In this document: in pieces, positions 6,188 through 32,271 of the stretch
How positions within the stretch are numbered: the first letter of the stretch is position 1
How the letters are laid out: the number at the start of each line of letters is the position of its first letter
Assembly (NCBI GenBank): GCA_965203805.1
Contig: OZ241917.1
Coordinates: 3,808,001-3,872,000, forward strand
Source of the DNA: Candidatus Latescibacterota bacterium
GTDB taxonomy: Bacteria > Latescibacterota > UBA2968 > GCA-2709665
Reading direction: 5' to 3'
DNA length: 64,000 nucleotides
Notes under the pieces: generated by a model
What the model was told of the DNA's origin: nothing
The model's database searches: none
The model's input: only the letters and a program-made list of their open reading frames with translations
Translations under genes and position numbers: made by a program

Positions 6188-6213
6188 TACTCGACCTCCT
6201 TGTACGTCGGCGT

Positions 6214-14520: not shown

Positions 14521-17500
14521 ATGCAAGAGGAAAAAATGACCGATGTCATCGAATCGGCGATCAAGAAAACAGCAGAGATGAATCCACAGGAGACCGACGG
14601 CGAATGGCTTGAAGTCGTCACTGTGTGGTCCGCCCCATTCATCAAAGAGTGGGACATCTCAGCGTGCTGGCATTGGGAGGACTGGCCGGATAGAGAGACA
14701 CATTTTCCGAACACGACCAGATTAGACGTGGGGATAGACGCCGTAGCCGTGCGTCGCGGCGACGGGCAGCACGTCGCAATCCAGTGCAAGTCGCGCCGGC
14801 TTGATGACAAGGGACGCGGTACCTCAATCCACAACAACGAGATCGCCAAGTTCGCGGCTGCGTCCGCTGCGAACTTCTGGGCCGAGCGCTGGGTCGTCAC
14901 CAACGGAGACAATCCACTTGCCAGCGGTGCAGCGCAGTCGGCTTCGATGAGCGAGAAGCCGCTCAAACTTGTCAATATCACGAACGACTTGCACCAGCAG
15001 AGCCAGTCGAGCGCCGCATCTGAGGAGAACGAGTACGGTACGAGTCCTGAAAGGGATGATGCGATTCAGACGAAATCATGCATGCAAGACGAAGCCGTCG
15101 CCAACAGCGTCCGCATACTCAAAGAGCAGGAACACTCGGAGAGCGGAGGATTGCCGCTCGGCGAGGCACGCGGAAGAATCATCCTGCCCTGCGGAACGGG
15201 AAAGACTCGCATATCGCTCCGGATCGTGGAAGAACTGACGCCACCGGGCGAACTGTCCATCGTGCTGTGTCCTTCAATAGCGCTCGTATCCCAGATAAGG
15301 CGCGAGTATCTGGAAAACGCTGCAGTTCCCTTAGATGTGCTGGCGGTCTGCTCTGACGCTACGGCGGGATACGATCCCGGGAAAGAGGGGAGGCGCAACG
15401 CCACGCTTGACCCTACGGTCGATAACAGCAATGTCAGCGCGTCCGAGGTGAAGGGCAGGGTTACCACCGACGCCGGAGAAATAGCCGAATGGATGGGCCG
15501 GAGCACTTACGACAACGGAATCAAGGTTCTCATCGGGACATACCAGAGCAGCGGCACCGTATCGGAGGCCCTGCTCAGCGCCGGCGGCAGAGCGTGCGTG
15601 TTGATTGCTGACGAAGCGCACAGAACGGCGGGACTTAAGCGTAAGAACTCCAAATCCGCTGCTGCCAATGAAGAAGAAAAGCGTCTTCGTGACTTCACTG
15701 TGTGCCACGACAGCGACAGGTTTCCTGCAAACTATCGCGTCTATCAGACTGCTACACCGCGCATCTATGACGGCAAGCGCGCAATCGGCAATCCGAACTG
15801 GATCGTCCGTTCGATGGACGACGAGACCACATTCGGCGTCGAACTGTACCGCAAGAGCTACCTGGAAGCCGTGCGCAACCGATGGCTGTCCGATTACCGT
15901 ATCATCGCGATGGGCATCAACGACCCGGAGGCGTTCGAGACGGCGAATGTTCTGGCTAAGAAAACCAAGAGCAAAGGGCACGGCAAGCTGACGACCTCGG
16001 ACTACATGCGCGGCCTGGCGTACGCTCTCACGATGGGTGGAGCGACCCAGGGCGAAAGTGTGGACATCAGGTCTTGTATCGCCTTCATGAACACGGTGGA
16101 CAAGTCCAAGAACATGGCGGAGGACCTCCAGTCCGAAAACGTGAAGGAATGGGTCTCCCGGTGGCTCGACGAGAACGCAGATGGCAGAGATGTGTCTGAC
16201 TACAGCCTCGAACACCTGGACGCTTCGAGCAACGCCGCGGCGCGCGAAACCGCGAAGGGACGGCTTGCCTCTGCCGATGCGAAAAACCCTCACGGTATCA
16301 TCAATGTGGGCATCTTTGGAGAGGGCACCGATTCGCCGTCATTGAGCGCGGTGGCGTTTCTTGAAGCCCGGAGGAGTCCCATCGACGTCGTGCAGGCCGT
16401 CGGCCGGGCGATGCGAACCGCCCCCAACAAAGAACTGGGCTACATTGTCTGCCCCATTCTGATTCCTCCCACCGCCGACCCCGAGAAATGGCTGAGCAAC
16501 AGTGACTCCGAGGAGGGATGGCAGGAGCTTGGGCAGATTCTCCTGGCTCTGCGAGCCCACGACCAGCGCATTGAGGAGAGCCTTGAGGAACTTCTGCAAC
16601 TGTATATCCCCAAGCCGCCGCCAGTGGAGCGCACTTTAGTGGCGGTTGCCTCAGCCGAAGGCAATCGAATACAGTACGGTGAGGTCGAGGGACCGCCCGG
16701 TGCGGCGCAGGAAGCGGTCGAACAGGTGTTGAAAGGCAAGACCCGTTCCGAGTCCGGAATACGACGCATAAGCGAAACGCATGCCGGTTTCCAGGCACAA
16801 TACAGCACCAAGTCTACATCAGAAGCACCACGTACAAGTGAAAAACCGGTCGATTACCGTGCGGTGGAGATAACGCAGGTCTTCACGGGTAAGAAGAACG
16901 ACGATGGTAGCATCGAACTCCGCGCGGATTCCGTTGACCGGGACAAGCCTGACGCTGGCGAGGCGCGCGGCGTTGTAAACATACAGAAAACCAAAGCCAA
17001 GGCTCGGAAGATGATTAATTCCGGTGAGGGCGGCATTCGCGTTAAGCCGGGCAGTCATAAGAAGACACGCAAAACCGCCAAAGAACGAGCAGAGGAAAAA
17101 GGGCAGGTGATGCTCAAGCTGAGCGGGTTGGAAGAGCACGGCAGCGCCATAAAGATGAACCTCCTTGCGAAGTCCGGTCTGAGTGACAATCGCGTGATAC
17201 GCGACCTGAACATACTGGAAGGGAGCGTCAGCGAAGCGGCCCATCACATGCGCGCCGACGGACTGTTGCATGCACTGAACCAGCACTTCGGATTGGACAG
17301 GCTCAAGAAGACGGACAAGAAGCATGCGGACGGCTGCACGGTAGCCGCTCTTCTGATGATGAACGCCGCCATGTTGCACCAGCGCATCGCCAACGGTGGC
17401 TGGCTCTCGGGTATCAGCGACCTGTCTATCGTCAAGAACGAAGTCAACGTCGTTCGGAAGATGAGCCGTGAATGGGAGCGCATCATGCGCCACGACTTCC

Positions 17501-19893
17501 GTCCGGTGCTCGAACCTGCGCTGGAAGCCATCTACGCGGTAGAGACGTCGGGTAAGACCGCGGGTCTGGAACGCGCCTTGCATCACCTCGCCGCCGAAGC
17601 CGAGCGAATCGCCGAGACATACGCGGATATGGGCGCAGACCACGCGGGACCGCTGTTTAACCGAGTCATGGGCAACCAGGCATCAGATGGCGCGTTCTTC
17701 ACCAGACCCGTCGCCGCGTCGCTCGCCGCCCGGCTGACGCTGGACGTCTGCGGAGACCTGGACTGGTCAGACCCACGCGTATGGCGGGAGCACAAGACCG
17801 TCGACCTGGCCTGCGGCAGCGGCACGCTGCTTGCCGCTGTGCTCACCGACATGAAGCGCCGAGCGGCAGAGAGGGGCGCCGACACGGAAACCCTGACCCA
17901 GCTTCAGAAAGTGGCAGTCGAGGATGTGATCAAAGGGCTAGATATCAACCCCGTTTCCCTCCAACTTGCGGCGTCCCAACTGACGGCGGGCAACCATAGA
18001 GTCAGCTACCGCAGAATGGGACTTCACCAGATGCCCTACGGCCCCGATAATTCCGGCAGGGTGTCGGTGGGGACGCTCGAACTGCTGGGGCAGCGGTCTA
18101 TCGTATCGAGGCGGGGCGAACTGGATCTGGGCGACGACGTGGCAATCGATTCGGAGGCTACCTGGGCGTCAGCCGACGACACAGAGCTTGAGGACGCGGT
18201 TGACGCTGCGCAGGATGCCCGCATCGTCATCATGAACCCGCCGTTCACCAACCGCGCCAACATGGGCGAAAAATTCCCGCAGGAGACTCAGAACAAGCTG
18301 CGCGCCCGTGCGGACGCCTTAGAACGAAAACTGACGGAGGCGGACCCGGGTTTGGTAGAGTTCGGGAGTAAAAATTCCATTGGACCGCTTTTCGTCGCAC
18401 TGGCCGATCATTGCCTCGATCGTTCTCATGGGGTTATGACGATGATCGAACCAACTGTATCTCTCACTGGGTCATCACAATTGCAGAAGAGAAGATCACT
18501 CGCTCAGCGTTTTCACATCCACACGGTGTTGACCTCGCACCAGCCTCAAAACATCAACATGAGCCAGCACACGAACATCAACGAGAGCATCATTGTATTG
18601 CGCCGCCACCCCGTCGGTTCCAAGCCGCCCACGCGGTTCATCAATCTCGATATAATGCCAGTGGACGACGGCGAGGTCGCAGATTTTCATCGATGTCTGC
18701 TGGACTGTGAAAGAGGCCTGATGGCGAACGGATGGGGCGCAGTCTCTTACTGGCCTGCTGAGCGCATCAATGTCGGCGATTGGACGGCGGGGGTGTTTCG
18801 ATCGCCAGAACTAGCCAATGCTGCGTTCGATTTCGCTACTCACAATTCGCTTATTCGGATGGAGAAACAAGGTATGGAGCCATCCTCAGTGTTAGATGGG
18901 GGAGCGCAATTGGTTCAATTCAGACAGGCTGACGCAGATGCGCCGGGCGCTTTTCCGGTCTTTTATTCCAAGTCCGCCGGGGCCCAGCGGACCATTCGAG
19001 GTGTACCTGATCAGCATCGGGCACCCCAAAGGCTTGTTCCACCGGATGAATGGGTTAATATTCCCGGCGTGGATGGTCAACACCACCCTGACAATGCCCG
19101 TCGGATCGTGGCCCAAACCTCCCACCTGTTGGTGACGGGCGGGCAGCGCACCGGCACGGCCCGTTTGACAGCCGTGGCACAAAAGGAGCGGCATGTCGGC
19201 ATTGGTTGGTTGCCTGTGCCGGGTATGACCTTCAATCAGGCGAAGGCCGCGGCTGTTTTTCTCAACTCAACCCCGGGGCGGCTGCAACTGTTGCGCAATC
19301 CCGGAATGACTCTGGAATTTCCAAAGTACAGACCTGATGCTCTGAAGACCATCTGTTTGCCTGATCTCTCCGATAATGTTCTCGTTGACAGTTTGGCTCA
19401 CTGTTGGGATTGCACGAAGGACATGGTGGTGCCGCAATACCGGGTTGGCGAATGTGAAGTGCGCCGCCTGTGGGATGAAGCGGTAGCCGACGCGATGGGC
19501 TGGGACGCTGAGGAACTCACACGGCTGCGCCTGTTGCTGCATCAGGAACCGCATGTGCGCGGGCTGGGCTACGGGCAGTACGCAGATGAGGTGGACATTG
19601 AACCTGTCGACCGTGAGCGATTCATTGAATTGGCTGACCAATGGGAAATTGAAACTGTGCTGCTGTCACGCACCGACCTGATGATTAAACATCCCGCCCA
19701 CCAAAAAATCATCAGTATGGGTGAGCCGGCAGTACCCCTGATCCTGCAACGGATGAGATCACAGGGCGGACACTGGTTTACAGCTCTTCGCGACATCACC
19801 AACGCTAACCCCGTTCAATCCGCCGACAGAGGCAATGTATCGGCTATGCAGGAGGCCTGGCTGAAATGGGGCGAAGCCAATGGATACGCCTAG
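14521..19893 (+). CDS. Type ISP-like single-polypeptide restriction-modification enzyme (Mrr-like nuclease, SF2 helicase, N6-adenine methyltransferase, putative TRD) with an extra C-terminal domain
   Basis: GIDAVA...AIQCK nuclease motif; helicase motifs LPCGTGKT, DEAHR, TATP, GEGTDSP, QAVGRAMR; methyltransferase motifs GAFFTRP, VDLACGSGTLL, IMNPPF. Confidence 0.85.
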   Translation: MQEEKMTDVIESAIKKTAEMNPQETDGEWLEVVTVWSAPFIKEWDISACWHWEDWPDRETHFPNTTRLDVGIDAVAVRRGDGQHVAIQCKSRRLDDKGRGTSIHNNEIAKFAAASAANFWAERWVVTNGDNPLASGAAQSASMSEKPLKLVNITNDLHQQSQSSAASEENEYGTSPERDDAIQTKSCMQDEAVANSVRILKEQEHSESGGLPLGEARGRIILPCGTGKTRISLRIVEELTPPGELSIVLCPSIALVSQIRREYLENAAVPLDVLAVCSDATAGYDPGKEGRRNATLDPTVDNSNVSASEVKGRVTTDAGEIAEWMGRSTYDNGIKVLIGTYQSSGTVSEALLSAGGRACVLIADEAHRTAGLKRKNSKSAAANEEEKRLRDFTVCHDSDRFPANYRVYQTATPRIYDGKRAIGNPNWIVRSMDDETTFGVELYRKSYLEAVRNRWLSDYRIIAMGINDPEAFETANVLAKKTKSKGHGKLTTSDYMRGLAYALTMGGATQGESVDIRSCIAFMNTVDKSKNMAEDLQSENVKEWVSRWLDENADGRDVSDYSLEHLDASSNAAARETAKGRLASADAKNPHGIINVGIFGEGTDSPSLSAVAFLEARRSPIDVVQAVGRAMRTAPNKELGYIVCPILIPPTADPEKWLSNSDSEEGWQELGQILLALRAHDQRIEESLEELLQLYIPKPPPVERTLVAVASAEGNRIQYGEVEGPPGAAQEAVEQVLKGKTRSESGIRRISETHAGFQAQYSTKSTSEAPRTSEKPVDYRAVEITQVFTGKKNDDGSIELRADSVDRDKPDAGEARGVVNIQKTKAKARKMINSGEGGIRVKPGSHKKTRKTAKERAEEKGQVMLKLSGLEEHGSAIKMNLLAKSGLSDNRVIRDLNILEGSVSEAAHHMRADGLLHALNQHFGLDRLKKTDKKHADGCTVAALLMMNAAMLHQRIANGGWLSGISDLSIVKNEVNVVRKMSREWERIMRHDFRPVLEPALEAIYAVETSGKTAGLERALHHLAAEAERIAETYADMGADHAGPLFNRVMGNQASDGAFFTRPVAASLAARLTLDVCGDLDWSDPRVWREHKTVDLACGSGTLLAAVLTDMKRRAAERGADTETLTQLQKVAVEDVIKGLDINPVSLQLAASQLTAGNHRVSYRRMGLHQMPYGPDNSGRVSVGTLELLGQRSIVSRRGELDLGDDVAIDSEATWASADDTELEDAVDAAQDARIVIMNPPFTNRANMGEKFPQETQNKLRARADALERKLTEADPGLVEFGSKNSIGPLFVALADHCLDRSHGVMTMIEPTVSLTGSSQLQKRRSLAQRFHIHTVLTSHQPQNINMSQHTNINESIIVLRRHPVGSKPPTRFINLDIMPVDDGEVADFHRCLLDCERGLMANGWGAVSYWPAERINVGDWTAGVFRSPELANAAFDFATHNSLIRMEKQGMEPSSVLDGGAQLVQFRQADADAPGAFPVFYSKSAGAQRTIRGVPDQHRAPQRLVPPDEWVNIPGVDGQHHPDNARRIVAQTSHLLVTGGQRTGTARLTAVAQKERHVGIGWLPVPGMTFNQAKAAAVFLNSTPGRLQLLRNPGMTLEFPKYRPDALKTICLPDLSDNVLVDSLAHCWDCTKDMVVPQYRVGECEVRRLWDEAVADAMGWDAEELTRLRLLLHQEPHVRGLGYGQYADEVDIEPVDRERFIELADQWEIETVLLSRTDLMIKHPAHQKIISMGEPAVPLILQRMRSQGGHWFTALRDITNANPVQSADRGNVSAMQEAWLKWGEANGYA

Positions 19894-20332
19894 ATCGGTG
19901 CGGTTTCTTGCTCAAGAATTCCACAGGCTATCCTATGAAGGCTTTGAAATCGTCGGAGAACCCTCCAAGCGATACAATTGCATCGCGTACGCCGCCGGTG
20001 ATACAACTAACCCCTGGAGTCATCACGAAGACGACTACTGGCCCGAGTATGCTACTCGTTCGGCCGACATCCAAAGCCTCGTGGAAGTGTTCGCCGGTCT
20101 GGGATTTGTGCAATGCCAGGACAGCAGTCTCGAAAAAGACTACGAAAAGGTGGCGTTGTACGAAAAACAGGATGAGTGGATGCATGCGGCACTACAGACC
20201 CCCAACGGGCGCTGGCGCAGCAAAATGGGACAAGGGTCGGTGATAGAACATCTCAGCCCTGAGTCGCTTTCCGGCGGAATGTACGGCAATCCGACAATCT
20301 ACATGCGAAGAGCTCTCATCGCTCCGGATTGA
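19880..20332 (+). CDS. Hypothetical papain-like Cys/His protein (DUF7689-like)
   Basis: YNCIAYA, YWP, EKVALY, MHAA and WRSKMG...IEH pattern. Overlaps the upstream gene by 14 nt. Family name is from recall. Confidence 0.7.
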   Translation: MDTPRSVRFLAQEFHRLSYEGFEIVGEPSKRYNCIAYAAGDTTNPWSHHEDDYWPEYATRSADIQSLVEVFAGLGFVQCQDSSLEKDYEKVALYEKQDEWMHAALQTPNGRWRSKMGQGSVIEHLSPESLSGGMYGNPTIYMRRALIAPD

Positions 20333-20395
20333 GTAACCCTGAATCTCAGACGCAGACCACAGTTTCGTGACGAATCGCCTTATTGACGTGTTTAC

Positions 20396-20595
20396 CGGTT
20401 GGCGGTTGTTGGGGCGGAGCGAGTTGAGGAAAGACTTGGCGAGGGACGGATTCGCGGACCGGAAGGCGCCGATGCGAAAGACGAATTGTCTCGCGATTTC
20501 GTCACTGGATGGTATAACAGCCGGAAGATAAATCGGACGGACGTAACCGACTGCAAGAAGAAGGGCCGTGTGACTCACACGGCCCTTCTTCTTGC
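20396..20595 (+). repeat. Diverged ~200-bp intergenic repeat, copy 1 (paralogous to 26244-26437)
   Basis: Shared blocks GCGGAG, GCGAGGGACG, GAATYGTCTCGC, TTTCGTC, GCCGGAAGAT and AAGAAGGGCCGTGTSACTCACACGGCCCTT in the same order and similar spacing. Confidence 0.8.
20553..20595. terminator. Perfect 21-bp inverted repeat, likely an intrinsic terminator
   Basis: GCAAGAAGAAGGGCCGTGTGA-C-TCACACGGCCCTTCTTCTTGC followed by TTT. Confidence 0.75.
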
Positions 20596-20691: not shown

Positions 20692-20734
20692 ATACAACAA
20701 AACTGTTGACAACGGATTCGTTGTATAGTAAAAT
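20692..20734 (+). promoter_or_regulatory. Sigma70-like promoter of the ATPase pair, with a palindromic operator over the -35
   Basis: TTGACA (20706)-N17-TAAAAT (20729). Imperfect 17-bp inverted repeat ATACAACAAAACTGTTG-A-CAACGGATTCGTTGTAT. Confidence 0.7.
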
Positions 20735-20764
20735 TAGATAAGTCTCATCGAAAAGGAGATAGCA

Positions 20765-22006
20765 ATGAACTCAGCAACTGGCCGTTGGGTAAACGGCGAC
20801 GATTTTTTCAATCGTGATCGTGAATTGCGAATACTGGAAACAAAGGTTCGAGACCGTAACCACGTGTTGCTGACGGGCCAGCGGAGGATGGGAAAGACCA
20901 GCATTGTCCAGGAGCTGGGGCGTCGGCTCAAAGACGACGGATGGATCTTCCTCTTTGTGGATGTCGAAGGCGCGGATTGTTCAGAGGACGCGATCGCTGA
21001 AATCGCAAAGGCTGTACACGAGATTCGCACCATCGCATCGCGATTCGCCACCGGGCTCAAGCGTATCATCAGCGAAGGGATAGAGGAAATCAGCGCATCG
21101 GAATTCCGCGTCAAGATCCGTGCGGGGTTAAACGAGGGGAACTGGCGACGTCATGGTGAAGAGTTATTCCGTGCGTGCGCCGAGCATGATAGGCCGGTAC
21201 TCCTGGTGATCGACGAGTTGCCGATTTTTCTGAAGCGTATGTTTAAAGAAGATAACAGCGCACAACGTGTGGACGGGTTTCTCAGTTGGTTGCGCGGTGT
21301 GATTCAGGTTATAGGAAATGAAGCTCCAGTCTTCATCGTGTCCGGCAGTATCGGTCTCGAACCACTCGTGCGCGAGATCGGAATTCCCGACCGCATCAAC
21401 CATTTCTATTCCTACCGGCTCGGTCCGTGGGACCGTGAGAATTGCGTAAAGTGTTTCAGTCGTCTAGCCGAGAGTCACGCATTTTACGTTGACGAAGGGG
21501 TGGCCGAAGCAGTGTACCACGCGCTCGGGATCGGCATCCCCCACCAGGTTCAATCATTCTTCGCGCGTTTGCGGGACTTCGCCATTATGCATGGTCGCGA
21601 CCGGGTGACGGTGAAGGACGTTGAGAATGTCTATCGCAGATTGCTTCTGGGACCGTCGGGTCAAAACGACCTCGTACACTATGAGACGCGCCTAAAGGAG
21701 GCTCTGGAAGATGAGAGTTACTCGATTGCTATGGAAGTCCTCGCCGAAGCGGCAGTTGAGGAAGTGTTCACGCCAGACGCTAAGAAATGTCTCGTACGGA
21801 TGTATTCCAGGCTGGTAAATGACGCAGCCACACGCATTGCAGACGTCCTCGAGGTCCTTGAATACGACGGTTATCTCGAATCCAACGACGATGGTCATGC
21901 CTTTGCTTCGCGTTTGCTGAAAGATTGGTGGACGGCCCGCTTTCGAGATCACCATGTCCCCATACGATGCCGCGAATCCAACGAAGATTCAAGGGAGGGA
22001 ATGTAA
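20765..22006 (+). CDS. P-loop ATPase (archaeal-ATPase/STAND-like)
   Basis: FFNRDREL, Walker A GQRRMGKT, Walker B LLVIDE, VSGSIGL and GIPHQVQ (GxP). AAGGAG RBS. Confidence 0.85.
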   Translation: MNSATGRWVNGDDFFNRDRELRILETKVRDRNHVLLTGQRRMGKTSIVQELGRRLKDDGWIFLFVDVEGADCSEDAIAEIAKAVHEIRTIASRFATGLKRIISEGIEEISASEFRVKIRAGLNEGNWRRHGEELFRACAEHDRPVLLVIDELPIFLKRMFKEDNSAQRVDGFLSWLRGVIQVIGNEAPVFIVSGSIGLEPLVREIGIPDRINHFYSYRLGPWDRENCVKCFSRLAESHAFYVDEGVAEAVYHALGIGIPHQVQSFFARLRDFAIMHGRDRVTVKDVENVYRRLLLGPSGQNDLVHYETRLKEALEDESYSIAMEVLAEAAVEEVFTPDAKKCLVRMYSRLVNDAATRIADVLEVLEYDGYLESNDDGHAFASRLLKDWWTARFRDHHVPIRCRESNEDSREGM

Positions 22007-24786
22007 TGACGGGGACCAAACTATCGACACCCAGCCGAAATCCCCGGATACGAAAATTCAATCCAGGCACCCATCAGACCGACGGCGAGATAATTGAGCA
22101 GTTCGTCGTCCGCGAGCGAGAACTTGATTCTGTACTTGAGGTCCTCCGTGGAAACGTAGATTCGCCGTCGTGTCAACATGTCCTGGTGGTGGGCCCTAGA
22201 GGCAGGGGAAAAACCATGCTCCTGGTCCGCGTCGCTTCGGAGTTGCGGACGGACAAGAGCCTCGCACATCGCCTGTTTCCTGTTCGATTCATGGAAGAAA
22301 GCCAAGAGATCTTCGACCTGGCAGACTTCTGGCTGGAAGCTCTTTTTCATCTCGCCAAGGAAACTGAGGAACGCGATCCAATCCTCTCACGGGATCTGTA
22401 CAAGACGCACGGCGACCTTTCTTCGCGCTGGCGTGAAGAGTCGCTCGAGGTGCACGCTCGGGCCGCGGTCCTGGAAGCAGCGGACCGGCTGGACAGGAAA
22501 CTCGTGCTCATGGTCGAAAACATGCAATCGCTATGCGAGAACGTGGACGACGATTTCGGCTGGAAGTTCAGGGGAGCGTTGCAATCCGAACCCGAGATCA
22601 TGCTGCTCGCGTCTGCCACGACTAGGTTCGAAGGCCTGGACGACGCAGACCAGCCGTTTTTCGAACTGTTCCGGTCCATCAGCCTGGCGCCGCTAGATAC
22701 GGATGAGTGCCGCCTGCTGTGGCACGTCGTCAGCGGAGACACGGTGAGTTCACGTGAGATAAGGCCGTTACAGATTCTTACGGGCGGTAACCCGCGGCTT
22801 CTTGTCATCGTCGCCGAATTCGCGAGGCACAGATCCCTGCGCAAGCTGATGGAAGAGTTGGTGACACTTATCGACGAACACACAGAGTACTTCAGAGGAC
22901 ACCTCGAAATTCTGGCAAAGACTGAAAGGCGGGTTTACGTCTCGTTGATCGACCTCTGGCAGCGATCGAGCGCCGGAGAAATAGCGACACGTGCACGCAT
23001 GGACGTCCGTGTCGTGTCCACAATGCTGGGCAGGCTCGTCGACCGCGGTGCCGTGATTGCGGAAGGCCGCGGAAGGAAGAGATTGTACGCCCCCGCCGAA
23101 CCGCTCTATTGCATCTATTACAAGTTGCGGCGCGAGCGGGACGAGGCAGCTGTCGTGGAGAATCTGATACACTTTATGGTGGCGTTTTACGACATCCGTG
23201 AGATATCTGAAATTAGCGAACAGTTGTACCAGGAGGCACGGGAGCTTCCCGTCCTGCGCGCAGGGATGGAGCGAGTATTCGAAAAAATCTCAGATGCCGA
23301 CGAGGATTACATTCAAATGAAATGGGACTTGGTAAGAGATGCAGCCGATAAGGCTGCGATTTATCACATGGGGTTGTCTGAAACGCGGCTTGAGGCAGAA
23401 ATTAACGCAGCATTCCAGGAACAGGCGTGGCAGAGAGTGATTGAAATCATCGACGAAGCATTTGCGTCCTTGACCGCGAAGTCGTGGCAATTGTCAGAGG
23501 AATTTATCGGCCGCATTTTTCGGGCGAAAGCCTTTGCTCTTGAGCAACTTCGAGACTTTCACGGAATTGTTGTTGCGTGCGACGAACTGGTTAGGCGCAG
23601 CGGCTGCAATCGTGCAAAGGAAGTTAAGCAGAGTGTAGCCTCAATGTTGCTGCAGAAGGGACGCGCGAAAATGGAACTGGGAGATTTCGAGGGGGCCAGC
23701 ATAACGTTCGACGAGGTGGTGGAGCGCTACGGCAGCAGCAAGGCGAACTACCTTAAAAATTGGGCTGCCATGGCGTTAAACCACAAAGGTAAGGCGAGAC
23801 GGAATTTGGACGATACTCTCGGTGCCATTTCGGCATGGGAGGAGCTGATCGAGCGTTATAGTGACAGCAAAGAGTCAGAACTGCAAAATTGGGTTGCCTC
23901 TGCGTTAATTCACGTAGCGGAAGCGAGAAAAAAAATCGGCGATTCGGTTGGAGCCGCCGAATTAATCGATAATGTCATCTGTCGCTACTCCAAAAGCACC
24001 ATCCCGGATCTTCAGTATTGGGTTGCTGCTGCGTTGATCGATAAGGGTAGAATGGAAACAGAACTCGACGACTTGGAGGGTGCCTTAGCGAATTTCACGG
24101 AGGTCGTGGAACGTTATGGCGACAGCGATGAGTCGAATCTACAGCGCATTGTCGCCGGAGCGTTGTTCGATAAGGGTCGAACAAGCGAGAAACAGGGAGA
24201 TCTTGTTGGAGCAATTGCGTCATGGAAGGAGATAGTAATACGCTATGGCAATAGCGCCGATATCGATCTACAGAGATTCGTAACCGGTGTACTGATCGAC
24301 AAGGGGAGGTGCCAGGCCGAAGTGGGCCGCGCTGATGAAGCGCTGAACGTGTGCGAGCAACTTGAGTACAGATCGCGCGCGCTGCACGAGAATGAGAAGA
24401 GCCAGATCGCGTGGTTGGCACTGTGCATACGTGTCCTGGCGCTGATAGTAAAAAAAGAGACGGTAGCGGCCATGAATGCGTTTTGCTCCGTGTATGCCGG
24501 CTTTTCTCCAAAAAACGAAATTGGAGTGAAAGAGATGCTGCGGCTTGTCTCCAACTTGGTCGCAGCGGGCGCGTCGGAAGTTGAGCTTGTGGCTGTACTC
24601 TCAACCGATCCCACAAAATCGGCCGCCCTAACACCGCTCATCGTGGCCCTTCGTGAGCGGCAGGGAGAGACGGTTCGCGCGCCGGCGGAAGTGCGCGAAG
24701 TGGCTGCGGATGTGCGAGAGCAAATCGACGAACGTGTGAGGAATTGGGCGGAAGCAACGTCGGTTTCACCTGAAAGCGGCCGATGA
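22006..24786 (+). CDS. STAND-like ATPase with winged-HTH and 43-aa TPR-like repeats
   Basis: FVVREREL, Walker A GPRGRGKT, variant Walker B LMVENM, TGGNPRLL, HTH SAGEIATRARMDVRVVSTMLGRL and about 6 repeats with 129-nt spacing. Start at a TAATG overlap with the upstream stop, GGGAGGGA RBS. Confidence 0.83.
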   Translation: MTGTKLSTPSRNPRIRKFNPGTHQTDGEIIEQFVVRERELDSVLEVLRGNVDSPSCQHVLVVGPRGRGKTMLLVRVASELRTDKSLAHRLFPVRFMEESQEIFDLADFWLEALFHLAKETEERDPILSRDLYKTHGDLSSRWREESLEVHARAAVLEAADRLDRKLVLMVENMQSLCENVDDDFGWKFRGALQSEPEIMLLASATTRFEGLDDADQPFFELFRSISLAPLDTDECRLLWHVVSGDTVSSREIRPLQILTGGNPRLLVIVAEFARHRSLRKLMEELVTLIDEHTEYFRGHLEILAKTERRVYVSLIDLWQRSSAGEIATRARMDVRVVSTMLGRLVDRGAVIAEGRGRKRLYAPAEPLYCIYYKLRRERDEAAVVENLIHFMVAFYDIREISEISEQLYQEARELPVLRAGMERVFEKISDADEDYIQMKWDLVRDAADKAAIYHMGLSETRLEAEINAAFQEQAWQRVIEIIDEAFASLTAKSWQLSEEFIGRIFRAKAFALEQLRDFHGIVVACDELVRRSGCNRAKEVKQSVASMLLQKGRAKMELGDFEGASITFDEVVERYGSSKANYLKNWAAMALNHKGKARRNLDDTLGAISAWEELIERYSDSKESELQNWVASALIHVAEARKKIGDSVGAAELIDNVICRYSKSTIPDLQYWVAAALIDKGRMETELDDLEGALANFTEVVERYGDSDESNLQRIVAGALFDKGRTSEKQGDLVGAIASWKEIVIRYGNSADIDLQRFVTGVLIDKGRCQAEVGRADEALNVCEQLEYRSRALHENEKSQIAWLALCIRVLALIVKKETVAAMNAFCSVYAGFSPKNEIGVKEMLRLVSNLVAAGASEVELVAVLSTDPTKSAALTPLIVALRERQGETVRAPAEVREVAADVREQIDERVRNWAEATSVSPESGR

Positions 24787-25024
24787 GGTACAGAAGCGGA
24801 GGGACCAATCGGCAACATTTGGGCGGAATCGCGACGAGAGATTTCGCCCTATCGACGCAAGATCGGGCGCCTGCGTCGACACGTTTTACCGGTTGCCGGT
24901 TGACAGCAACCGATTTTGGATTAGATTTTTTCTGTGAGAAACGCGCGAAAGTGAATCAGCCTCGCCGCCGTCTGCACGATTTGCATCGAACACGGCGTAC
25001 TTCAACCTGAGTTACGGGGATTTT

Positions 25025-26478: not shown

Positions 26479-28836
26479 TCAATTCACCGTAAAGGTGTTC
26501 TCGCTGGCATATCTTCCGCGCGTTCCGTCGATCGTGATCTCCGCGACCATCCGGTATTCCCCTGCTTCCGAGGTCGAATAAGGGCAGAGGCCCACGCGCT
26601 GTGTGGCCGGGATATCAGCCCAGGACTCACCGTCCTTTCGCTGCCACTTTGACGAGTGGGTCGTGTAGGTCGCCCCGCCGATGGAGATGCCAATGAGTGT
26701 GATACACTGCTCAGTTGACGACAGCGCCAGGAATTCAACCCCGCCGTTCGACACGAGAAGCCCGGGCAACGGCCTGGTTTCCACCGGCGCGGTCGTCGTT
26801 TCCTCGCAATTCTCGCCGGTGGTCCGGTCGATCCCCTCCAGCCACGACTGAAAGCCCTCGTCGAGCGGCGCGCACAGCCCGGTGCCGTGAAACTGAAAAT
26901 CCTCCATGTTGTTCAAGCTGGTCAGACTGAAGGGAAGCGCGCCCTTCAGGTCTGCATTGTCGTTGACCCACAGCTGAGAAATGCTGGACAGGTTGCCCAT
27001 GGCTTCGGGAACTTCGCCGGTCAACGAATTGCTCGAAAGGTCGAGCCACGCCAGGGCAGGCGCGCTGCCAAATTGGGGGAGGATCGGACCCGTCAGCTTG
27101 TTCTCGGCAATCCACAGCACCTCGAGCGAGGCCATCCCGGTCAGTTCGACCGGTATCTCTCCCGACAGTTCATTCTCGTCGAGTTCCAGCCATCTGAGTT
27201 CCGGCAGGGCGCCAAGTTCCCCGGGAATCTCGCCGTTCAGAATGTTTTCGTTAAGCCTCAGCACTTCGAGGGCGGTCGCCTCCGCCAACGCCGGAGGTAT
27301 GGGTCCGGTCAATTCGTTTGTGCTCAGGTAGAGCCGCTCCAGGTGGCGCAGTTTGCCAAACGTCCCCGGTATTTCGCCTGTCAGCTTATTCTCGGTAAGC
27401 CATATCATATTCACGTTGGTCATATCGCCCAGTTCGGCGGGTAGGGCGCCTGTCAGTTCGTTTTCCGAGAAGTCCAGCCACAACACCTGCGTGAGCCTGC
27501 CCAAAGAAGTTGGAATCTCGCCACTCAACGCATTTTTCCAGATCCAAAGCACCTTCAGGTTTGAAAGATTTCCAAGTTCGGCTGGTAATGCGCCGCTGAG
27601 TTCGTTTTCGTCCAGATTGAGCCAACGCAGTTCAGATAGGTCGCCCAGTTCCGCGGGTATGGCGCCGCTCAACTGGTTGGCGTTGAGTCCCAGCCATCGG
27701 AGTTTGGACAGCCCCCCCAGTTCGGCGGGTATCTCACCGCTCAACGCGTTCCGGTGCAGAAAGAGCGCCTCATTGAGCGTAAGATTCGCCAATTCCAGGG
27801 GAATGGGACCACTGAGGCCGTTTCGTTGAAGGTGGAGCCGTCTGAGATGTGACAGGCTGCCTAATTCGCCGGGAATTTCGCCCGTCAGGTTGTTTTCGCT
27901 CAGGTTCAGGACGGAAACGCGCCCGTCGAACGCGATGACGCCGTGCCACGTGGAAACGTGTCTGTCGGTGAGCCAATTTGTACTTTCCGTCCAGTTGTCT
28001 CCGCCGGTCGACCTGTAAAGCGCCACCAGGGCGTCGCGCTCGGCGGGGTCGACAAGCGGGGCGGGCGGCGGCAGTTCCTTTCCGAACTGGGCCGCGAATT
28101 CGAGAAAATCGCCAAGCTCTACCGATCCGTCGCCGTCCAGGTCGAACCGTCCGTCGAAGGAATCGTCCTCCTGCTGAGACCCGAAATTACTCGCGAACTG
28201 CAGGAAATCGGACAACGCGACCGTACCGTCCCCGTCGAAGTCGGCGCGGTGCACGTCAAGGCCGGGGGACGGAGCCGCCGTACTGTCCTGGAGGGAAATG
28301 TCGATGTCCAGCGACGCGGTTTCATTACGGTATCGGCCGAGAGAGATTTCACCCTCAGCCAGCCGAATTGTGGTGCTTGAAAACGATGCCGACGTACGAA
28401 AACGTGCAGTGCCCAAAAGGCCGGTTCTGGGCGTGGTGCGGCTCGCGAACGGCCAGATGGTTATCTCGATGGAAGTCGGATGCGACTCTTCCGTGGGAGT
28501 CGCCACCGCGTTGGTCATGATTCCGCCAACGTCGAACCCCTCAAAGAGGACCTGGCGCGCGTCGTATTGAAAGAGCATGGATACCGCGGTTGCCCCCTGG
28601 ATGTCATCGCCGAAAATCTGTACGGAAACGACGTCCTCGGCGGAGACTTCAAGAGACGTCGCGCCCTGATCGCCCTCCGCCGCATCCAGGTCCGGAGAAA
28701 GCGAAAACGGTGCCTGGGAATAAAGCGGCGCCGGGCGAATCCACAGGACCAGGGCGATGATTGCAAAGAACAACACAACCGCCACACCGAAATACCGGGC
28801 GTACCAACGAGAGGGATACATCCTCGATTCGGACAT
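26479..28836 (-). CDS. Secreted protein with a cohesin-like domain, dockerin-like EF-hand pair and 14 plant-type 24-aa leucine-rich repeats
   Basis: Hydrophobic N-terminus; FQYDARQV...LGTARF; DFDGDGTVALSDF...DLDGDGSVELGDF; N-cap ERDALVALYRSTGGDNW; LxxLxLxxNxLSGxIPxELG repeats. Confidence 0.85.
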   Translation of the reverse strand: MSESRMYPSRWYARYFGVAVVLFFAIIALVLWIRPAPLYSQAPFSLSPDLDAAEGDQGATSLEVSAEDVVSVQIFGDDIQGATAVSMLFQYDARQVLFEGFDVGGIMTNAVATPTEESHPTSIEITIWPFASRTTPRTGLLGTARFRTSASFSSTTIRLAEGEISLGRYRNETASLDIDISLQDSTAAPSPGLDVHRADFDGDGTVALSDFLQFASNFGSQQEDDSFDGRFDLDGDGSVELGDFLEFAAQFGKELPPPAPLVDPAERDALVALYRSTGGDNWTESTNWLTDRHVSTWHGVIAFDGRVSVLNLSENNLTGEIPGELGSLSHLRRLHLQRNGLSGPIPLELANLTLNEALFLHRNALSGEIPAELGGLSKLRWLGLNANQLSGAIPAELGDLSELRWLNLDENELSGALPAELGNLSNLKVLWIWKNALSGEIPTSLGRLTQVLWLDFSENELTGALPAELGDMTNVNMIWLTENKLTGEIPGTFGKLRHLERLYLSTNELTGPIPPALAEATALEVLRLNENILNGEIPGELGALPELRWLELDENELSGEIPVELTGMASLEVLWIAENKLTGPILPQFGSAPALAWLDLSSNSLTGEVPEAMGNLSSISQLWVNDNADLKGALPFSLTSLNNMEDFQFHGTGLCAPLDEGFQSWLEGIDRTTGENCEETTTAPVETRPLPGLLVSNGGVEFLALSSTEQCITLIGISIGGATYTTHSSKWQRKDGESWADIPATQRVGLCPYSTSEAGEYRMVAEITIDGTRGRYASENTFTVN

Positions 28837-29416: not shown

Positions 29417-30499
29417 GTGCAACGATTTGTGCTTTTTGCCATTTTTATGGCGCTGATGTCATTCGGATCGGCTCAGGCGGATGAACCGACCGCGGACGAC
29501 GGGAAGCCCGCTATTGCAAATCCGAAGGCACTTCAGCTTGGCGTTTTGGATAAACAAAAGAGTACTTTGACGAGTTCTGATATGTTGAACGGGGAGGGGG
29601 CGCCCGTGGGGAAAGGGCTTTCGCTGGGGCATGTTCCCTCCAAGTACGAGATCGTAAACGGCCGTGCGTTGAGCGGGAATCCCGGGGACGCCGTGGGCGG
29701 GGAACGGTCGCGGCCTTTGCTGACATCGGATTTTGGAGAAAGAAGATCCAGCGGTAAACTAACGAGGGGTTTGAACATCACCGGCGGGCGAAACGCCTCT
29801 GCAACCCTCAAGCTCGAGCCGATCGACGAGGTCGACGCGGACAACGGGACGTTGAGAATTCTCGTTTCTCTTGCGCACGCGAAAGAACTGAAAGGGTACG
29901 GATTCTCGGTGCACTACGATCCGGCGAAGTACGCGTTCGTGAACGTCAGGGAAACAGAGGAGAATCTGCTCAAGTCCGATACCGGCCGGCAGACGCTGTT
30001 CGTGTCCGCCAACCACACGCCCGGTCGAGTGGATCTCGGCGCAGTGAAGGTGGATGGTCAGGGCGTAAGCGGTGACGGCAGGCTCGTCGAACTCACGTTC
30101 AAGACGCACCGTGCGGCTGCGGCGGGCGACTTCAGGGTCTCGGAAGGCGTATTGATCGGTCTCGACGGCGCGATCGACCGGGTGACGAATGTCGATTTCG
30201 CCCGTCTGATGCCGCAAGCCGGCGAATACAAGCTGGACCAGAATGTGCCCAATCCGTTCAATCCCTCCACCGTCATCGGGTACCGGATTCCGGAAGCCGG
30301 CCCGGTCCGGCTGGTCATTTACAACCTGCTGGGCCAGGAGGTCCGCGTTCTGGTCGACGGCCATATGGAGGCAGGATCGTTCACGGCCACCTGGGATGGA
30401 AAAGATGAGATGGGCAGGCAAGTGTCCAGCGGCATCTATCTCTACCGGATTCAGGCAGGCGGTTTCCTCGCGTCCAGACGAATGATGTTCCTGAAATAA
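29417..30499 (+). CDS. Secreted cohesin-domain protein with a C-terminal FlgD-Ig/T9SS-like sorting domain
   Basis: Signal peptide (AQA-D); LKGYGFSVHYDP...SGDGRLVELTF; QNVPNPFNPST...IYNLLGQEV...WDGKD...SSGIYLYR. GAAGGAG RBS. Upstream TTGACA-N17-TAGATT at 29261. Confidence 0.83.
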   Translation: MQRFVLFAIFMALMSFGSAQADEPTADDGKPAIANPKALQLGVLDKQKSTLTSSDMLNGEGAPVGKGLSLGHVPSKYEIVNGRALSGNPGDAVGGERSRPLLTSDFGERRSSGKLTRGLNITGGRNASATLKLEPIDEVDADNGTLRILVSLAHAKELKGYGFSVHYDPAKYAFVNVRETEENLLKSDTGRQTLFVSANHTPGRVDLGAVKVDGQGVSGDGRLVELTFKTHRAAAAGDFRVSEGVLIGLDGAIDRVTNVDFARLMPQAGEYKLDQNVPNPFNPSTVIGYRIPEAGPVRLVIYNLLGQEVRVLVDGHMEAGSFTATWDGKDEMGRQVSSGIYLYRIQAGGFLASRRMMFLK

Positions 30500-31521: not shown

Positions 31522-32271
31522 ATGACGCCGATCGAACAGGCGCGGGAAGCCATCGAACAGAGCGACATCGAAAGGTTGGAAGGGCTGATCGCGTCCCATC
31601 CGGACCTGCCCAATCTAAGGTCGAAAGACAACGATCGCACGCTGCTGCATACGATCGCGGACTATCCGGGGCACAAGCCGAAGGGCATTGAGATGGCCCG
31701 GCTGGTCATCGACGCGTGCGCCGACGTGAACGCGCGTTTCCAGCACGGGCAGGTTGCAGCAGTGAAAGAGACGCCGCTGCACTGGGCGGCGAGCAACGAC
31801 GACGTCGACCTGGCGGAGCTGCTTCTGGACGCGGGGGCGGATATCGATGCGGACGCCGGCGTTATCGCGAACGGGACGCCGATTTGGAACGCCGTCATTT
31901 TTCGGTGTATAAACGCGGCACGGCTGTTGATCGACCGCGGAGCAGCGTCGAATCTGATGACTGCCGCGGGCGCCGGACGAAGGGACATGGTGGACCGGTT
32001 TTTTGACGAGGATGGAAACGTCACGAAAAACGCCGGGGCCCTGCCCTGCTGGGATGAACCCAGGCCGCCGAAGACGGCGCTGGACAGCGCGTTCGGATTC
32101 GCGTGTCGAAACGGCCACGCGACCATCGCGAAGGTCCTGTACGAACGCGGCGCCGATCCGGGATGGGTGAATCCGGCCGGTGAATCCGCATATCAACAGG
32201 CGAAGACGGGCGGACACAGGATCGTCATGGACTGGATGAAAACCCGCGGCATCGCGCCCGACGACGCATGA
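31522..32271 (+). CDS. Ankyrin-repeat protein
   Basis: RTLLH, ETPLHWAA...LLLDAGADID, GTPIWNAV and ACRNGH...LYERGADP. GGAGG RBS. Confidence 0.88.
   Translation: MTPIEQAREAIEQSDIERLEGLIASHPDLPNLRSKDNDRTLLHTIADYPGHKPKGIEMARLVIDACADVNARFQHGQVAAVKETPLHWAASNDDVDLAELLLDAGADIDADAGVIANGTPIWNAVIFRCINAARLLIDRGAASNLMTAAGAGRRDMVDRFFDEDGNVTKNAGALPCWDEPRPPKTALDSAFGFACRNGHATIAKVLYERGADPGWVNPAGESAYQQAKTGGHRIVMDWMKTRGIAPDDA

Follow-up and report, generated by a model that had tools for sequence, protein, structure and literature searches.

An uncharacterised two-gene cassette of paired STAND-like ATPases from a Candidatus Latescibacterota bacterium, probably a sensor module in defence

Two adjacent genes in a 64-kb stretch of a Candidatus Latescibacterota genome (the whole stretch analysed, hereafter the window) form a strict two-gene cassette. 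Both encode ATPases, ORF1 with a full set of catalytic motifs and ORF2 with a conserved, non-catalytic Walker B motif, a winged helix and an array of tetratricopeptide (TPR) repeats. The cassette is probably an uncharacterised paired STAND-like sensor module in defence. The explanation that we favour, to which we give about an even chance, is that of a two-gene NTPase switch that is self-contained, moves horizontally and probably serves in conflict or defence; ORF2 would be the sensor and ORF1 the active ATPase. The features of the locus are as follows, with positions counted in the window.

20391..20408, + strand: left copy of an 18-nt direct repeat that brackets the cassette, TTTACCGGTTGGCGGTTG
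20553..20595, no strand assigned: perfect 21-nt inverted repeat, terminator-like, with a G+C-rich stem and a T-rich tail, between the DUF7689 gene and the cassette promoter
20706..20734, + strand: sigma-70-like promoter TTGACA-17-TAAAAT (11/12 positions match), ending 30 nt before the ORF1 ATG
20753..20758, + strand: ORF1 ribosome-binding site AAGGAG (sequence inspection)
20765..22006, + strand: ORF1, ATPase with C-terminal winged helix, 413 aa, ATG start (Pfam, fold comparison, 64-locus motif alignment)
21993..21999, + strand: ORF2 ribosome-binding site GGGAGGG, inside the end of ORF1, 6 nt upstream of the ORF2 ATG (sequence inspection)
22006..24786, + strand: ORF2, NTPase, winged helix, TPR array and helical tail, 926 aa from the ATG at 22006 (Pfam, model, 64-locus alignment)
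22192..22215, + strand: ORF2 Walker A GPRGRGKT, residues 63-70 (xPRGxGK[TS] in 64/64 loci)
22501..22521, + strand: ORF2 non-canonical Walker B LVLMVEN, residues 166-172 (E-N in 63/64 loci, E-S in one; E-N in 5/5 distant homologues)
22912..23103, + strand: ORF2 winged helix-turn-helix, residues 303-366 (TrmB, E 2.8e-4, under the Pfam cut-off; MarR-family chain 2fa5, E 3.6e-4)
23626..24375, + strand: ORF2 TPR array, residues 541-790 (units of ~43 aa, DNA period of 129 nt)
24376..24783, + strand: ORF2 conserved all-helical C-terminal region, residues 791-926, retained in short forms that lack the TPR array
24885..24902, + strand: right copy of the 18-nt direct repeat, TTTACCGGTTGCCGGTTG

ORF2 directly follows ORF1 in 79 of 80 related loci, the exception (L078) stopping at a contig end, and it does so in all five distant homologues (30-42% ORF1 identity). 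Here the ORF1 stop codon (TAA, 22004-22006) and the ORF2 start codon (ATG, 22006-22008) share one base in the sequence TAATG; the mechanical list of open reading frames starts ORF2 at a TTG at 21925, and the ATG was chosen because all homologues agree with that start. With an ATG start, the overlap of the two genes is 4 nt in 36 of 75 loci and 1 nt in another 6, and these numbers rise if GTG and TTG are allowed. The two proteins also vary together: the identities of ORF1 and of the N-terminal part of ORF2 are correlated (r 0.75), with a faster divergence of the TPR region. Beside the pair there is no conserved third gene: of 81 sources, 79 and 74 have the pair's two clusters, and 6 have the next one. 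Homologues number in the thousands for each protein; the ORF1 family comprises 433 clusters at 50% identity (E <= 1e-30), and at least 372 candidate stretches in one-genome-per-species contigs encode a relative.

An earlier reading of the letters alone (the sequence-only reading) had described the pair as joined by a TAATG overlap, driven by its own consensus promoter, placed directly after a restriction-modification locus and devoid of an obvious effector, and all of this held. Upstream lies a gene for a type IIG-like restriction-methylase fusion of 1790 aa (14521-19893; PADLOC REase_MTase_IIG, E 3.5e-86), overlapped by a DUF7689 gene (19880-20332). No enzymatic domain was found by Pfam in either protein. 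Fused effectors were likewise not found: of 2763 ORF1 relatives, the 150 best have, with few exceptions, ~400-420 aa or are shorter fragments, and longer proteins, searched separately, yielded 3 hits, among them an in-frame fusion of ORF1 and ORF2 (P0392). Precomputed Pfam lists for 120 homologues contain mostly P-loop ATPase and TPR families and a few other, unchecked entries, none of them recognised as GT4 or HEPN.

In ORF1, Walker A (GQRRMGKT, residues 38-45, 20876-20899) and Walker B (LLVIDE, residues 146-151, 21200-21217) are the motifs that the sequence-only reading had named, and Walker A and the D-E pair are retained in 64/64 loci. By structure, ORF1 comes closest to two archaeal ATPases, 2qen and 2fna (VIA-align Z 17.2 and 16.4; Foldseek E 9e-9), and the likeness extends from the ATPase through the helical lid to the C-terminal winged helix; the ORF1 profile also finds 2qen by sequence (E 0.001). 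Next in the ranking come NLR resistosomes, ORC2/Cdc6, TnsC and CED-4, with Z scores of 14.5 (9h2l), 13.9 (9qlv) and 11.1 (6j5t) for plant resistosome NOD modules and of 13.9 (1w5s), 13.1 (2qby) and 12.0 (1fnn) for ORC/Cdc6 structures; MuB, DnaA and MalT are matched as well. Against Pfam PF01637 (ATPase_2), ORF1 scores 29.7 bits with a cut-off of 33.2, and a distant family member, P0277, reaches 39.0. Motifs and fold together argue that ORF1 is an ORC/Cdc6- and NLR-NOD-like ATPase that is predicted to be catalytically competent. As to the label "STAND-like" used by the sequence-only reading, the nSTAND1, 3, 5, 6 and NACHT models of Pfam all stay under their cut-offs, and the nearest folds of ORF1 are PF01637 ATPases and ORC/Cdc6, followed by NLR NOD modules.

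ORF2 is recognised as an NTPase by AAA_16 (39.7 bits, cut-off 32.6). It has the motifs that had been picked out from the letters (GPRGRGKT; LMVENM, residues 168-173; GGNP, residues 260-263) together with the helix-turn-helix and the TPR-like repeats. Its Walker B had been called degenerate, and this view had to be given up, because the pattern h-h-h-h-V-E-N is fixed across the family, distant homologues included. Such constancy argues for E-N as a selected feature and not as a decayed remnant. The proposal of one active and one possibly inactive ATPase agrees with the motifs, ORF1 having the full catalytic set and ORF2 the non-catalytic Walker B. Conservation of ORF2 peaks in the winged-helix part (column identity 0.85, residues 231-395), and residues 1-30 are just a short conserved peptide. 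TPR_6 and TPR_2 exceed their Pfam cut-offs on residues 545-790, a region modelled as a TPR superhelix with a pLDDT of about 90. The TPR array has a mean pairwise identity of 0.35 versus 0.66-0.70 for the NTPase cores (64 loci), which is a divergence about twice as fast, and ORF2 homologues range from 513 to 1745 aa. The helical C terminus matched no Pfam family. The model of the N-terminal part is poor (pLDDT <50 over residues 198-378), and therefore its fold class is assigned from sequence alone.

Hetero-oligomer modelling, which had been suggested along with the sequence-only reading, gave a median ipSAE of 0.57 for the two chains (runs 0.65, 0.57 and 0.52; best control 0.00). Of 157 solved complexes, 116 passed the tool's mark, as did 2 of 215 mismatched pairs; the pass came at 0.60 or less in only 18 of those 157 complexes and in both of the mismatched pairs. 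Our run differs from the tool's calibration in that it used our own alignments and included ATP. Partner pLDDT was at least 80 and the runs agreed in at least 75% of contacts. The prediction lends weak support to a contact between ORF1 and ORF2.

The cassette was found in 35 of 168 genomes of the phylum and in 7 of 14 other congeners, and its carriers bear at least nine phylum labels. The ORF1 tree requires 22 changes of phylum label (minimum 8) and has well-supported clades of mixed phyla, a picture of inter-phylum transfer that MAG binning errors could inflate. The tree argues that the cassette is horizontally mobile. Its G+C content is 0.53-0.55 versus 0.57-0.63 in the flanking 2-kb bins. 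The bracketing 18-nt repeat is possibly an insertion footprint; it has two matches in the whole window (<=2 mismatches) and none in 100 shuffles, and a second short shared block lies just upstream of it. The inverted repeat at 20553..20595 is absent from the output of a consensus terminator scan. Elsewhere in the window, LRR, ankyrin, HEAT and cohesin-type repeat proteins are abundant.

A defence, toxin-antitoxin or mobile-element gene lies at most two genes away in 18 (clear cases) to 23 (ambiguous cases added) of 65 non-redundant loci, a raw count taken without a control. About two-thirds of the loci have no recognisable gene of these kinds among their four closest neighbours; the neighbours there are housekeeping genes (trpA, pfk, hemH, gmk, rpoZ, pdxA, T2SS) or have no Pfam match. 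PADLOC v2.0.0, which the sequence-only reading had named as a check, called no system on the pair, and no PADLOC or NCBIfam defence family was matched apart from a P-loop-only hit to mad8 (E 1e-6). On a Segatella plasmid, a distant homologue of ORF1 lies among DUF262, WYL and IetA-like genes, and there too the gene overlaps with another one for an ATP-binding protein. This plasmid locus, the patchy presence, the mixed phyla on the tree, the lower G+C content, the bracketing repeat, the type IIG gene upstream and the defence, toxin-antitoxin or mobile-element neighbours of 18-23 loci speak for a role in conflict; the lack of a match to a defence family, the housekeeping or unmatched neighbours of the other loci and the absence of hits among 50,697 phage records speak against it.

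How might such a switch work? With E-N at the position of the catalytic D-E or D-D, ORF2 should bind ATP and hydrolyze it slowly or not at all. Translational coupling would supply ORF1 and ORF2 in a fixed ratio, and the two would assemble as a hetero-oligomer via their NTPase modules, as the model weakly suggests. The rapidly diversifying TPR array of ORF2, the putative sensor, would bind the trigger, and this ligand would release or reshape the complex. Since neither the proteins nor a linked gene provides an enzymatic effector, the output would most likely come from the NTPase and winged-helix modules themselves, conceivably by binding DNA, or a factor of the host or phage, in an ATP-dependent manner. 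A more specific version, which we consider doubtful, is a bacterial counterpart of paired NLRs that lacks an enzymatic effector: the E-N sensor would be held ATP-bound, an invader protein meeting the TPR array would license the ORC/Cdc6-like partner, and both winged helices would load on DNA to block replication or transcription of the invader or to arrest the cell.

The conserved winged helix could instead point to gene regulation. If the pair were a MalT-like ATP-dependent transcription regulator, the TPR array would sense a small molecule or protein, the winged helix of ORF2 would bind DNA at unlinked targets, and ORF1 would be a co-regulator or resetting ATPase. Indeed, the winged helix, the most conserved part of ORF2, weakly matches TrmB, MarR and ArsR models; look-alikes of ORF2 residues 1-430 in the atlas, which combine an ATPase with a MarR-type HTH, carry annotations as transcription regulators (one cluster bears the automatic name 'MarR family transcriptional regulator', with MarR_2 on 66% of members, and there are HTH_24 clusters); the ORF1 fold matches MalT at Z 10.1; and many neighbours are housekeeping genes. 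However, a bare two-gene unit spread over at least nine phylum labels would be unexpected without a linked target, as would its presence in only half of the congeners; no neighbouring operon is conserved, and a fast-evolving TPR array of variable copy number is more typical of arms-race receptors. We regard a regulator as unlikely.

Mobility itself, seen in the horizontal spread and the flanking direct repeat, would also suit a selfish or element-maintenance module, either an addiction-like pair or an ORC/TnsC/IstB-like ATPase pair aiding replication, targeting or partition of an element. The fold matches of ORF1 to TnsC, MuB, DnaA and ORC fit this idea, and some loci adjoin a TrwC relaxase, transposases or an integrase. 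Yet no transposase, integrase or replication gene is conserved beside the pair, the 18-nt repeat was found in this genome only, and searches of 72,556 plasmid records and 50,697 phage records gave only 2 distant hits, both on plasmids; we consider this explanation quite improbable. The wealth of repeat proteins in the window, and several public record titles with bin labels that we take to be those of marine-invertebrate microbiome MAG sets, would agree with a 'eukaryote-like repeat protein' factor of symbiotic bacteria whose TPR protein acts on host proteins. Both proteins are, however, built on cytoplasmic NTPase and winged-helix modules, no secretion-related domain was found by Pfam, and distant members occur elsewhere, for example on the Segatella plasmid, which makes a host-interaction factor very improbable.

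The family is large and couples an active with a predicted hydrolysis-impaired NTPase, both without an effector domain. If the cassette is an immune system, it would exemplify paired-receptor signalling without an enzymatic domain and offer a prokaryotic model of sensor/helper NLR logic; if the paired-NLR counterpart is true, immunity would act by ATP-dependent occupancy of DNA, not by a nuclease, NADase or pore, in a module that bacteria of at least nine phylum labels would exchange freely. As a regulator, the cassette would be unusual in its mobility. Under either reading, the mechanism can be tested cleanly through the invariant E-N Walker B of ORF2.

Among known systems, the archaeal 'Walker-type' ATPases of PF01637 (2qen, 2fna) are the best structural matches of ORF1, but neither an obligate pairing with a TPR-bearing NTPase nor, to our knowledge, a function has been described for them. 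With ORC/Cdc6 initiators, ORF1 shares an AAA+ module and a C-terminal winged helix; a core, vertically inherited initiator that acts at a replication origin is contradicted by the accessory, patchy occurrence of its gene (7/14 congeners, 35/168 genomes of the phylum) and by the mixed phylum labels on the tree. Like MalT and other LAL-type STAND activators, ORF2 combines a P-loop NTPase, whose GxP-type motif is GGNP, with a helical sensor and the potential to bind DNA. Unlike them, the cassette has an obligatory second ATPase gene and no linked regulon; membership was rejected, the C-terminal LuxR-type HTH being missing (no GerE or LuxR hit in Pfam) and the C terminus helical. Paired sensor/helper NLRs of plants and animals (the NRC network, NAIP/NLRC4) consist of two NOD-type NTPases, one of them specialised for recognition, and it is by analogy only that ORF2 may be called a sensor and ORF1 a helper. 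ORF1 has no executing N-terminal domain of the kind present in helper NLRs (CC, CARD). Characterised bacterial NLR-like receptors (Avs, bNACHT) carry the weapon on the same chain.

With Avs/AVAST the cassette shares an NTPase followed by a helical or winged-helix module and a TPR-like sensor, as well as horizontal transfer and patchy presence. The Avs proteins (Avs1-21) are described as single polypeptides with an N-terminal effector, on whose removal activity is lost (Lee et al., Nature 2026, PMC13581612); here, in contrast, there is no N-terminal effector domain such as a nuclease, protease, SIR2 or TIR, and the second ATPase gene is obligatory. The Avs models of PADLOC v2.0.0, which do not cover Avs7-21, do not match the pair, the only hit being Avs4 on ORF1 (E 0.068) and none falling on ORF2. 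MADS is described as an eight-gene operon (mad1-mad8) with methyltransferase, kinase and ATPase-nuclease modules, in which mad8 works with mad7 (PMC13662399). Membership was rejected, since the match covers only the P-loop part of mad8 (profile positions 17-133 of 314) and the locus has no equivalents of mad1-7. The nSTAND2 operon, as described in its source, is mobile and consists of two genes for STAND-type NTPases, one active and one predicted inactive, for which a toroidal hetero-multimer was proposed; there, erosion has affected the NTP-binding motifs of the inactive partner, which also bears an effector, in most cases a GT4 glycosyltransferase or a HEPN RNase (Kaur, Iyer, Burroughs, Aravind, eLife 2021, PMC8195603). 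Two adjacent genes for STAND-type NTPases are common to both; set apart from nSTAND2 by that published description, the cassette has no GT4, HEPN or other effector, keeps the ORF2 P-loop intact (64/64 loci) with only the catalytic Walker B residue replaced, and carries a TPR array on the partner.

ORF1 and ORF2 form a translationally coupled pair of ATPase genes. The sequence-only reading had described such a pair, and its ORFs, TAATG overlap, promoter and motifs were all confirmed, every motif being found where it had been placed. The last base of the ORF1 stop codon is also the first base of the ORF2 ATG. For ORF2 the ATG at 22006 was taken as the start; automatic ORF calling reaches further, to a TTG at 21925.

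Features of the pair and of the region upstream
Start at 14521: type IIG-like restriction-methylase fusion, 1790 aa, upstream of the pair, following polA
20553-20595: perfect 21-nt inverted repeat, between the restriction-methylase/DUF7689 unit and the pair
20706-20734: promoter TTGACA-17-TAAAAT, matching at 11 of 12 positions, with AAGGAG 3' of it
20765-22006, + strand: ORF1, 413 aa
6 nt upstream of the ORF2 ATG: GGGAGGG
22006-24786, same strand as ORF1: ORF2, 926 aa from the ATG that fits all homologues

Homologues at E ≤ 0.001 numbered 1615 for ORF1 and 2817 for ORF2 (8000 candidates scored for each), and a contig scan with one genome per species gave at least 372 ORF1 relatives, with 80 loci kept. 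In 79 of these 80, ORF1 is followed by ORF2 in the same orientation; the lone exception stops at the contig end. With ATG starts, the overlap is 4 nt at 36 and 1 nt at 6 of the 75 loci; allowing GTG or TTG as start raises the count, and the remaining gaps are mostly of 18 nt or less. ORF1 is frameshifted in a few loci. All five distant ORF1 homologues from the window's phylum (30 to 42% identity) also have an ORF2 homologue directly downstream. When 1320 ORFs from the 80 loci and the window (81 sources) were clustered into gene families, the two clusters of the pair were present in 79 and 74 sources, and no conserved third gene was seen among these ORFs, every other family occurring in at most 6 loci.

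A full-library search with the ORF1 profile returned 2763 clusters at E ≤ 0.001 (433 at E ≤ 1e-30). Nearly all of the best 150 of these 2763 are about 400 to 420 aa long or shorter fragments; of the two long proteins among the best 150, one has an N-terminal extension that carries no annotation and the other is an ATPase-TPR form. Effector fusions were found neither in the best 150 nor in a search among longer proteins, which gave three matches, one of them (P0392) an in-frame ORF1-ORF2 fusion. The pair had no match in 50,697 phage records, and 72,556 plasmid records gave 2 distant matches. A distant ORF1 homologue (hhalign probability 99.6%) is carried by a Segatella copri plasmid (locus L083, NZ_CP085933.1, 33590-35637), where it overlaps a 298-aa ATP-binding gene whose product has a C-terminal winged helix; DUF262, WYL, IetA-like and IS21 genes surround it. 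The wider ORF1 family may generally work with a second ATPase.

ORF1 matched the Pfam model AAA_16 above the cut-off and PF01637 slightly under it (29.7 bits versus 33.2). Its predicted model (pLDDT 68.8) is nearest to archaeal Walker-type ATPases (Foldseek, 2qen, E 9e-9), and VIA-align gave Z scores of 17.2 for 2qen and 16.4 for 2fna over about 320 residues each. The next matches were NOD modules of plant NLR resistosomes (Z 14.5 and 13.9) and archaeal ORC2/Cdc6 (Z 13.9 and 13.1), with TnsC, CED-4 and MalT below ORC2/Cdc6. ORF1 is therefore an ATPase-lid-winged-helix module of the ORC/STAND kind. All 64 of 64 loci retain GQRRMGKT as well as the Walker B D-E.

A short peptide, (R/K)K(F/Y)NPG, is conserved at the start of ORF2 and is followed by the NTPase, GGNP/GGSP, a winged helix, a variable linker, a TPR array with units of about 43 aa and a conserved helical tail. 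The NTPase is of the AAA_16 type (39.7 bits, cut-off 32.6). The winged helix gives weak matches to TrmB, MarR, BlaI and ArsR models, and no other segment of ORF2 is as well conserved (column identity 0.85). A fold search, for which the N-terminal 380 residues were too poorly modelled to be included, found only generic TPR superhelices. Walker A is intact in all 64 loci. Walker B, which had been called degenerate, does carry non-canonical residues, but these are not the product of decay: h-h-h-h-V-E-N is present in 63 of 64 loci (one has E-S) and in five of five distant homologues of only 28 to 43% identity. Such near-invariance argues that E-N is a fixed character of the family. Walker B mutants of other P-loop ATPases hold nucleotide and hydrolyze little of it, and by analogy the ORF2 NTPase is predicted to bind nucleotide with little hydrolysis. 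We also considered whether ORF1 and ORF2 are recent paralogues and rejected this, as a profile comparison aligned only 47 columns around the P-loop (probability 65%).

Contact between the two proteins was modelled with ORF1 and residues 1 to 430 of ORF2 as two chains, including ATP and using custom alignments. The complex reached a median ipSAE of 0.57 (runs of 0.65, 0.57 and 0.52), whereas the best of three controls gave 0.00; the partners had a pLDDT of at least 80, and the runs shared at least 75% of the contacts. Of 157 solved complexes, 116 attained the mark for support, as did 2 of 215 mismatched pairs; at values of 0.60 or less it was attained by just 18 of the 157 and by both passing mismatches. 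The hetero-oligomer foreseen in the sequence-only reading was thus modelled above controls, but the result is graded as weak support. Contact was likely beforehand, given the translational coupling, the obligate adjacency and the one natural fusion, so the predicted complex corroborates it modestly. Solved structures include many AAA+ heteromers, and likeness to these may therefore contribute to the score.

Across 64 loci, mean pairwise identity is 0.66 for ORF1 and, within ORF2, 0.70 for the NTPase plus winged helix, 0.43 for the tail and 0.35 for the TPR region. Identities of ORF1 and of the N-terminal part of ORF2 correlate over these loci with an r of 0.75, a descriptive figure because locus pairs are not independent. 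ORF2 spans 513 to 1745 aa, and in seven loci short forms of 513 to 637 aa skip the TPR array and keep the tail. Two ORF2-type genes follow one ORF1 in six loci (L017, L019, L025, L053, L058 and L068), which suggests duplication of the sensor behind a shared partner ATPase; in L058 there is also another ORF1-ORF2 pair, in inverted orientation, and an ORF2 of 1745 aa. In a tree of 65 ORF1 sequences built with FastTree, phylum labels change 22 times (minimum, 8; shuffled mean, 34.3), and some well-supported sister pairs span different phyla. MAG binning errors could contribute to this apparent mixing. Of 168 genomes in the window's phylum, 35 have the ORF1 gene; of 14 other genomes in the genus, 7 have it.

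The G+C content of the pair in the window is 0.53 to 0.55, lower than in the flanking 2-kb bins (0.57 to 0.63). An 18-nt direct repeat (17 of 18 identical; 20391-20408 and 24885-24902, 4,494 bp apart) brackets the cassette, accompanied at both flanks by a second short shared block. It has no further copy within the 64-kb window, appeared in none of 100 shuffles and did not turn up in the other 81 loci. An insertion may have left it as a footprint, or it may come from duplication of the promoter region of the Cache gene downstream. The upstream restriction-methylase fusion (Mrr_cat_2, ResIII and methylase domains; PADLOC type IIG, E 3.5e-86) is overlapped by 14 nt by a DUF7689 gene (150 aa; unit 14521-20332). 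These two genes occur together in L004, L006 and the window, and DUF7689 may therefore be an accessory of the restriction-methylase.

In 65 loci, the two nearest genes to the left and to the right of the pair were scanned (254 proteins). The window and 15 loci were left out, 12 for synteny shared with a kept locus or the window (L004, L006, L019, L021, L024-L026, L031, L039, L053, L068 and L075) and three as short contigs (L029, L044 and L078). In 18 of 65 loci the pair has a clear defence, toxin-antitoxin or mobile-element gene nearby; the count is uncontrolled, so the defence-like neighbourhood is suggestive only. The neighbours included restriction and abortive-infection genes (AbiJ, HsdM, HsdS, AbiU2 with a caspase-helicase, SNF2 with AbiEi, an EVE domain), toxin-antitoxin genes (HipA, PIN, HigB, TacA/GNAT, Fic) and mobile-element or nucleic-acid genes (TrwC, reverse transcriptase with PD-(D/E)XK, transposases, integrase). 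Five further loci had ambiguous neighbours (AAA_14-DUF4143, AlbA_2/Fic-like regulators, YgjP, DUF433), and in the remainder the flanking genes were housekeeping genes or had no Pfam match.

Some other genes were observed alongside. A HigB-like toxin and HTH antitoxin pair (clusters 41 and 42) lies directly upstream of the cassette in L049, L053 and L068. In the window, a Macro-domain gene (39736-40665) overlaps by 4 nt a gene for a DarT-family ssDNA ADP-ribosyltransferase (40662-41663); together (39736-41663) they make up a DarTG-like toxin-antitoxin/defence pair, with Macro first and DarT second, in a low-G+C stretch (0.44 at 40 to 42 kb) adjoined by an ORF of the aminoglycoside 3-N-acetyltransferase family (38204-38971, - strand; Antibiotic_NAT, E 1e-38). 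The window also has a cluster of eukaryote-like repeat proteins (4754-6217, 26479-28836, 29417-30499 and 31522-32271) with HEAT/PBS-lyase repeats and PhyH, a 785-aa LRR protein, cohesin/FlgD-Ig and ankyrin types; the ankyrin protein also matches the PADLOC candidate PDC-M72A (E 7.5e-14).

We propose that ORF1 and ORF2 would form a hetero-oligomeric NTPase switch. ORF2 would be the ligand sensor: its TPR array is diversifying, and its NTPase would hold ATP and be impaired in hydrolysis. ORF1 would be the catalytically competent partner. As the output we favour binding to DNA, or to a factor from the host or the invader, in a nucleotide-dependent way, which would fit the lack of an enzymatic domain or linked gene and NTPase modules that end in winged helices, that of ORF2 being MarR/TrmB-like and best conserved. 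A role in conflict is favoured by accessory, mobile and patchy behaviour together with the partial defence context. To the combination of switch, ORF2 sensor, binding output and conflict role we give about an even chance. The main rival, that the genes are a mobile pair of transcription regulators, draws on look-alikes in the atlas annotated as MarR-type regulators, and we consider it rather unlikely. The sequence-only reading of a sensor/helper NLR-like system with one possibly inactive ATPase is partly supported: it holds for the paired NTPases, the TPR region, the missing effector and the lack of a PADLOC system, but not for Walker B, which is fixed and not degenerate.

The pair is a widespread, uncharacterised, mobile two-NTPase cassette of the STAND/NLR-like kind, with a putative role as a sensor. 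For either protein, PADLOC and NCBIfam yielded matches at the P-loop level only, and full-text literature on STAND/NLR pairs, defence and sponge symbionts yielded no published description of the pair. MADS was rejected as its identity, being an eight-gene system (PMC13662399). Of the 589 prokaryotic STAND clades in the catalogue of Lee et al. 2026 (PMC13581612), 198 are defence-associated. Six supplementary files of that paper, the largest tables apart, had no match for five contig-accession prefixes or 'Gemmatimonadota'; the pair's clade may already be within that catalogue, as defence-associated or not. The nSTAND2 two-gene operon of Kaur et al. 2021 (PMC8195603) is mobile and encodes two STAND NTPases, of which one is inactive and for which a toroidal heteromer was proposed; the inactive partner has eroded nucleotide motifs and GT4 or HEPN effectors. 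This is the nearest described concept and shares the mobile two-NTPase pairing, but ORF1-ORF2 has neither eroded nucleotide motifs nor such effectors. Avs proteins are single chains with effectors rather than two-gene pairs, and their profiles match neither ORF1 nor ORF2, yet they share with ORF2 the order of NTPase, winged helix and TPR.
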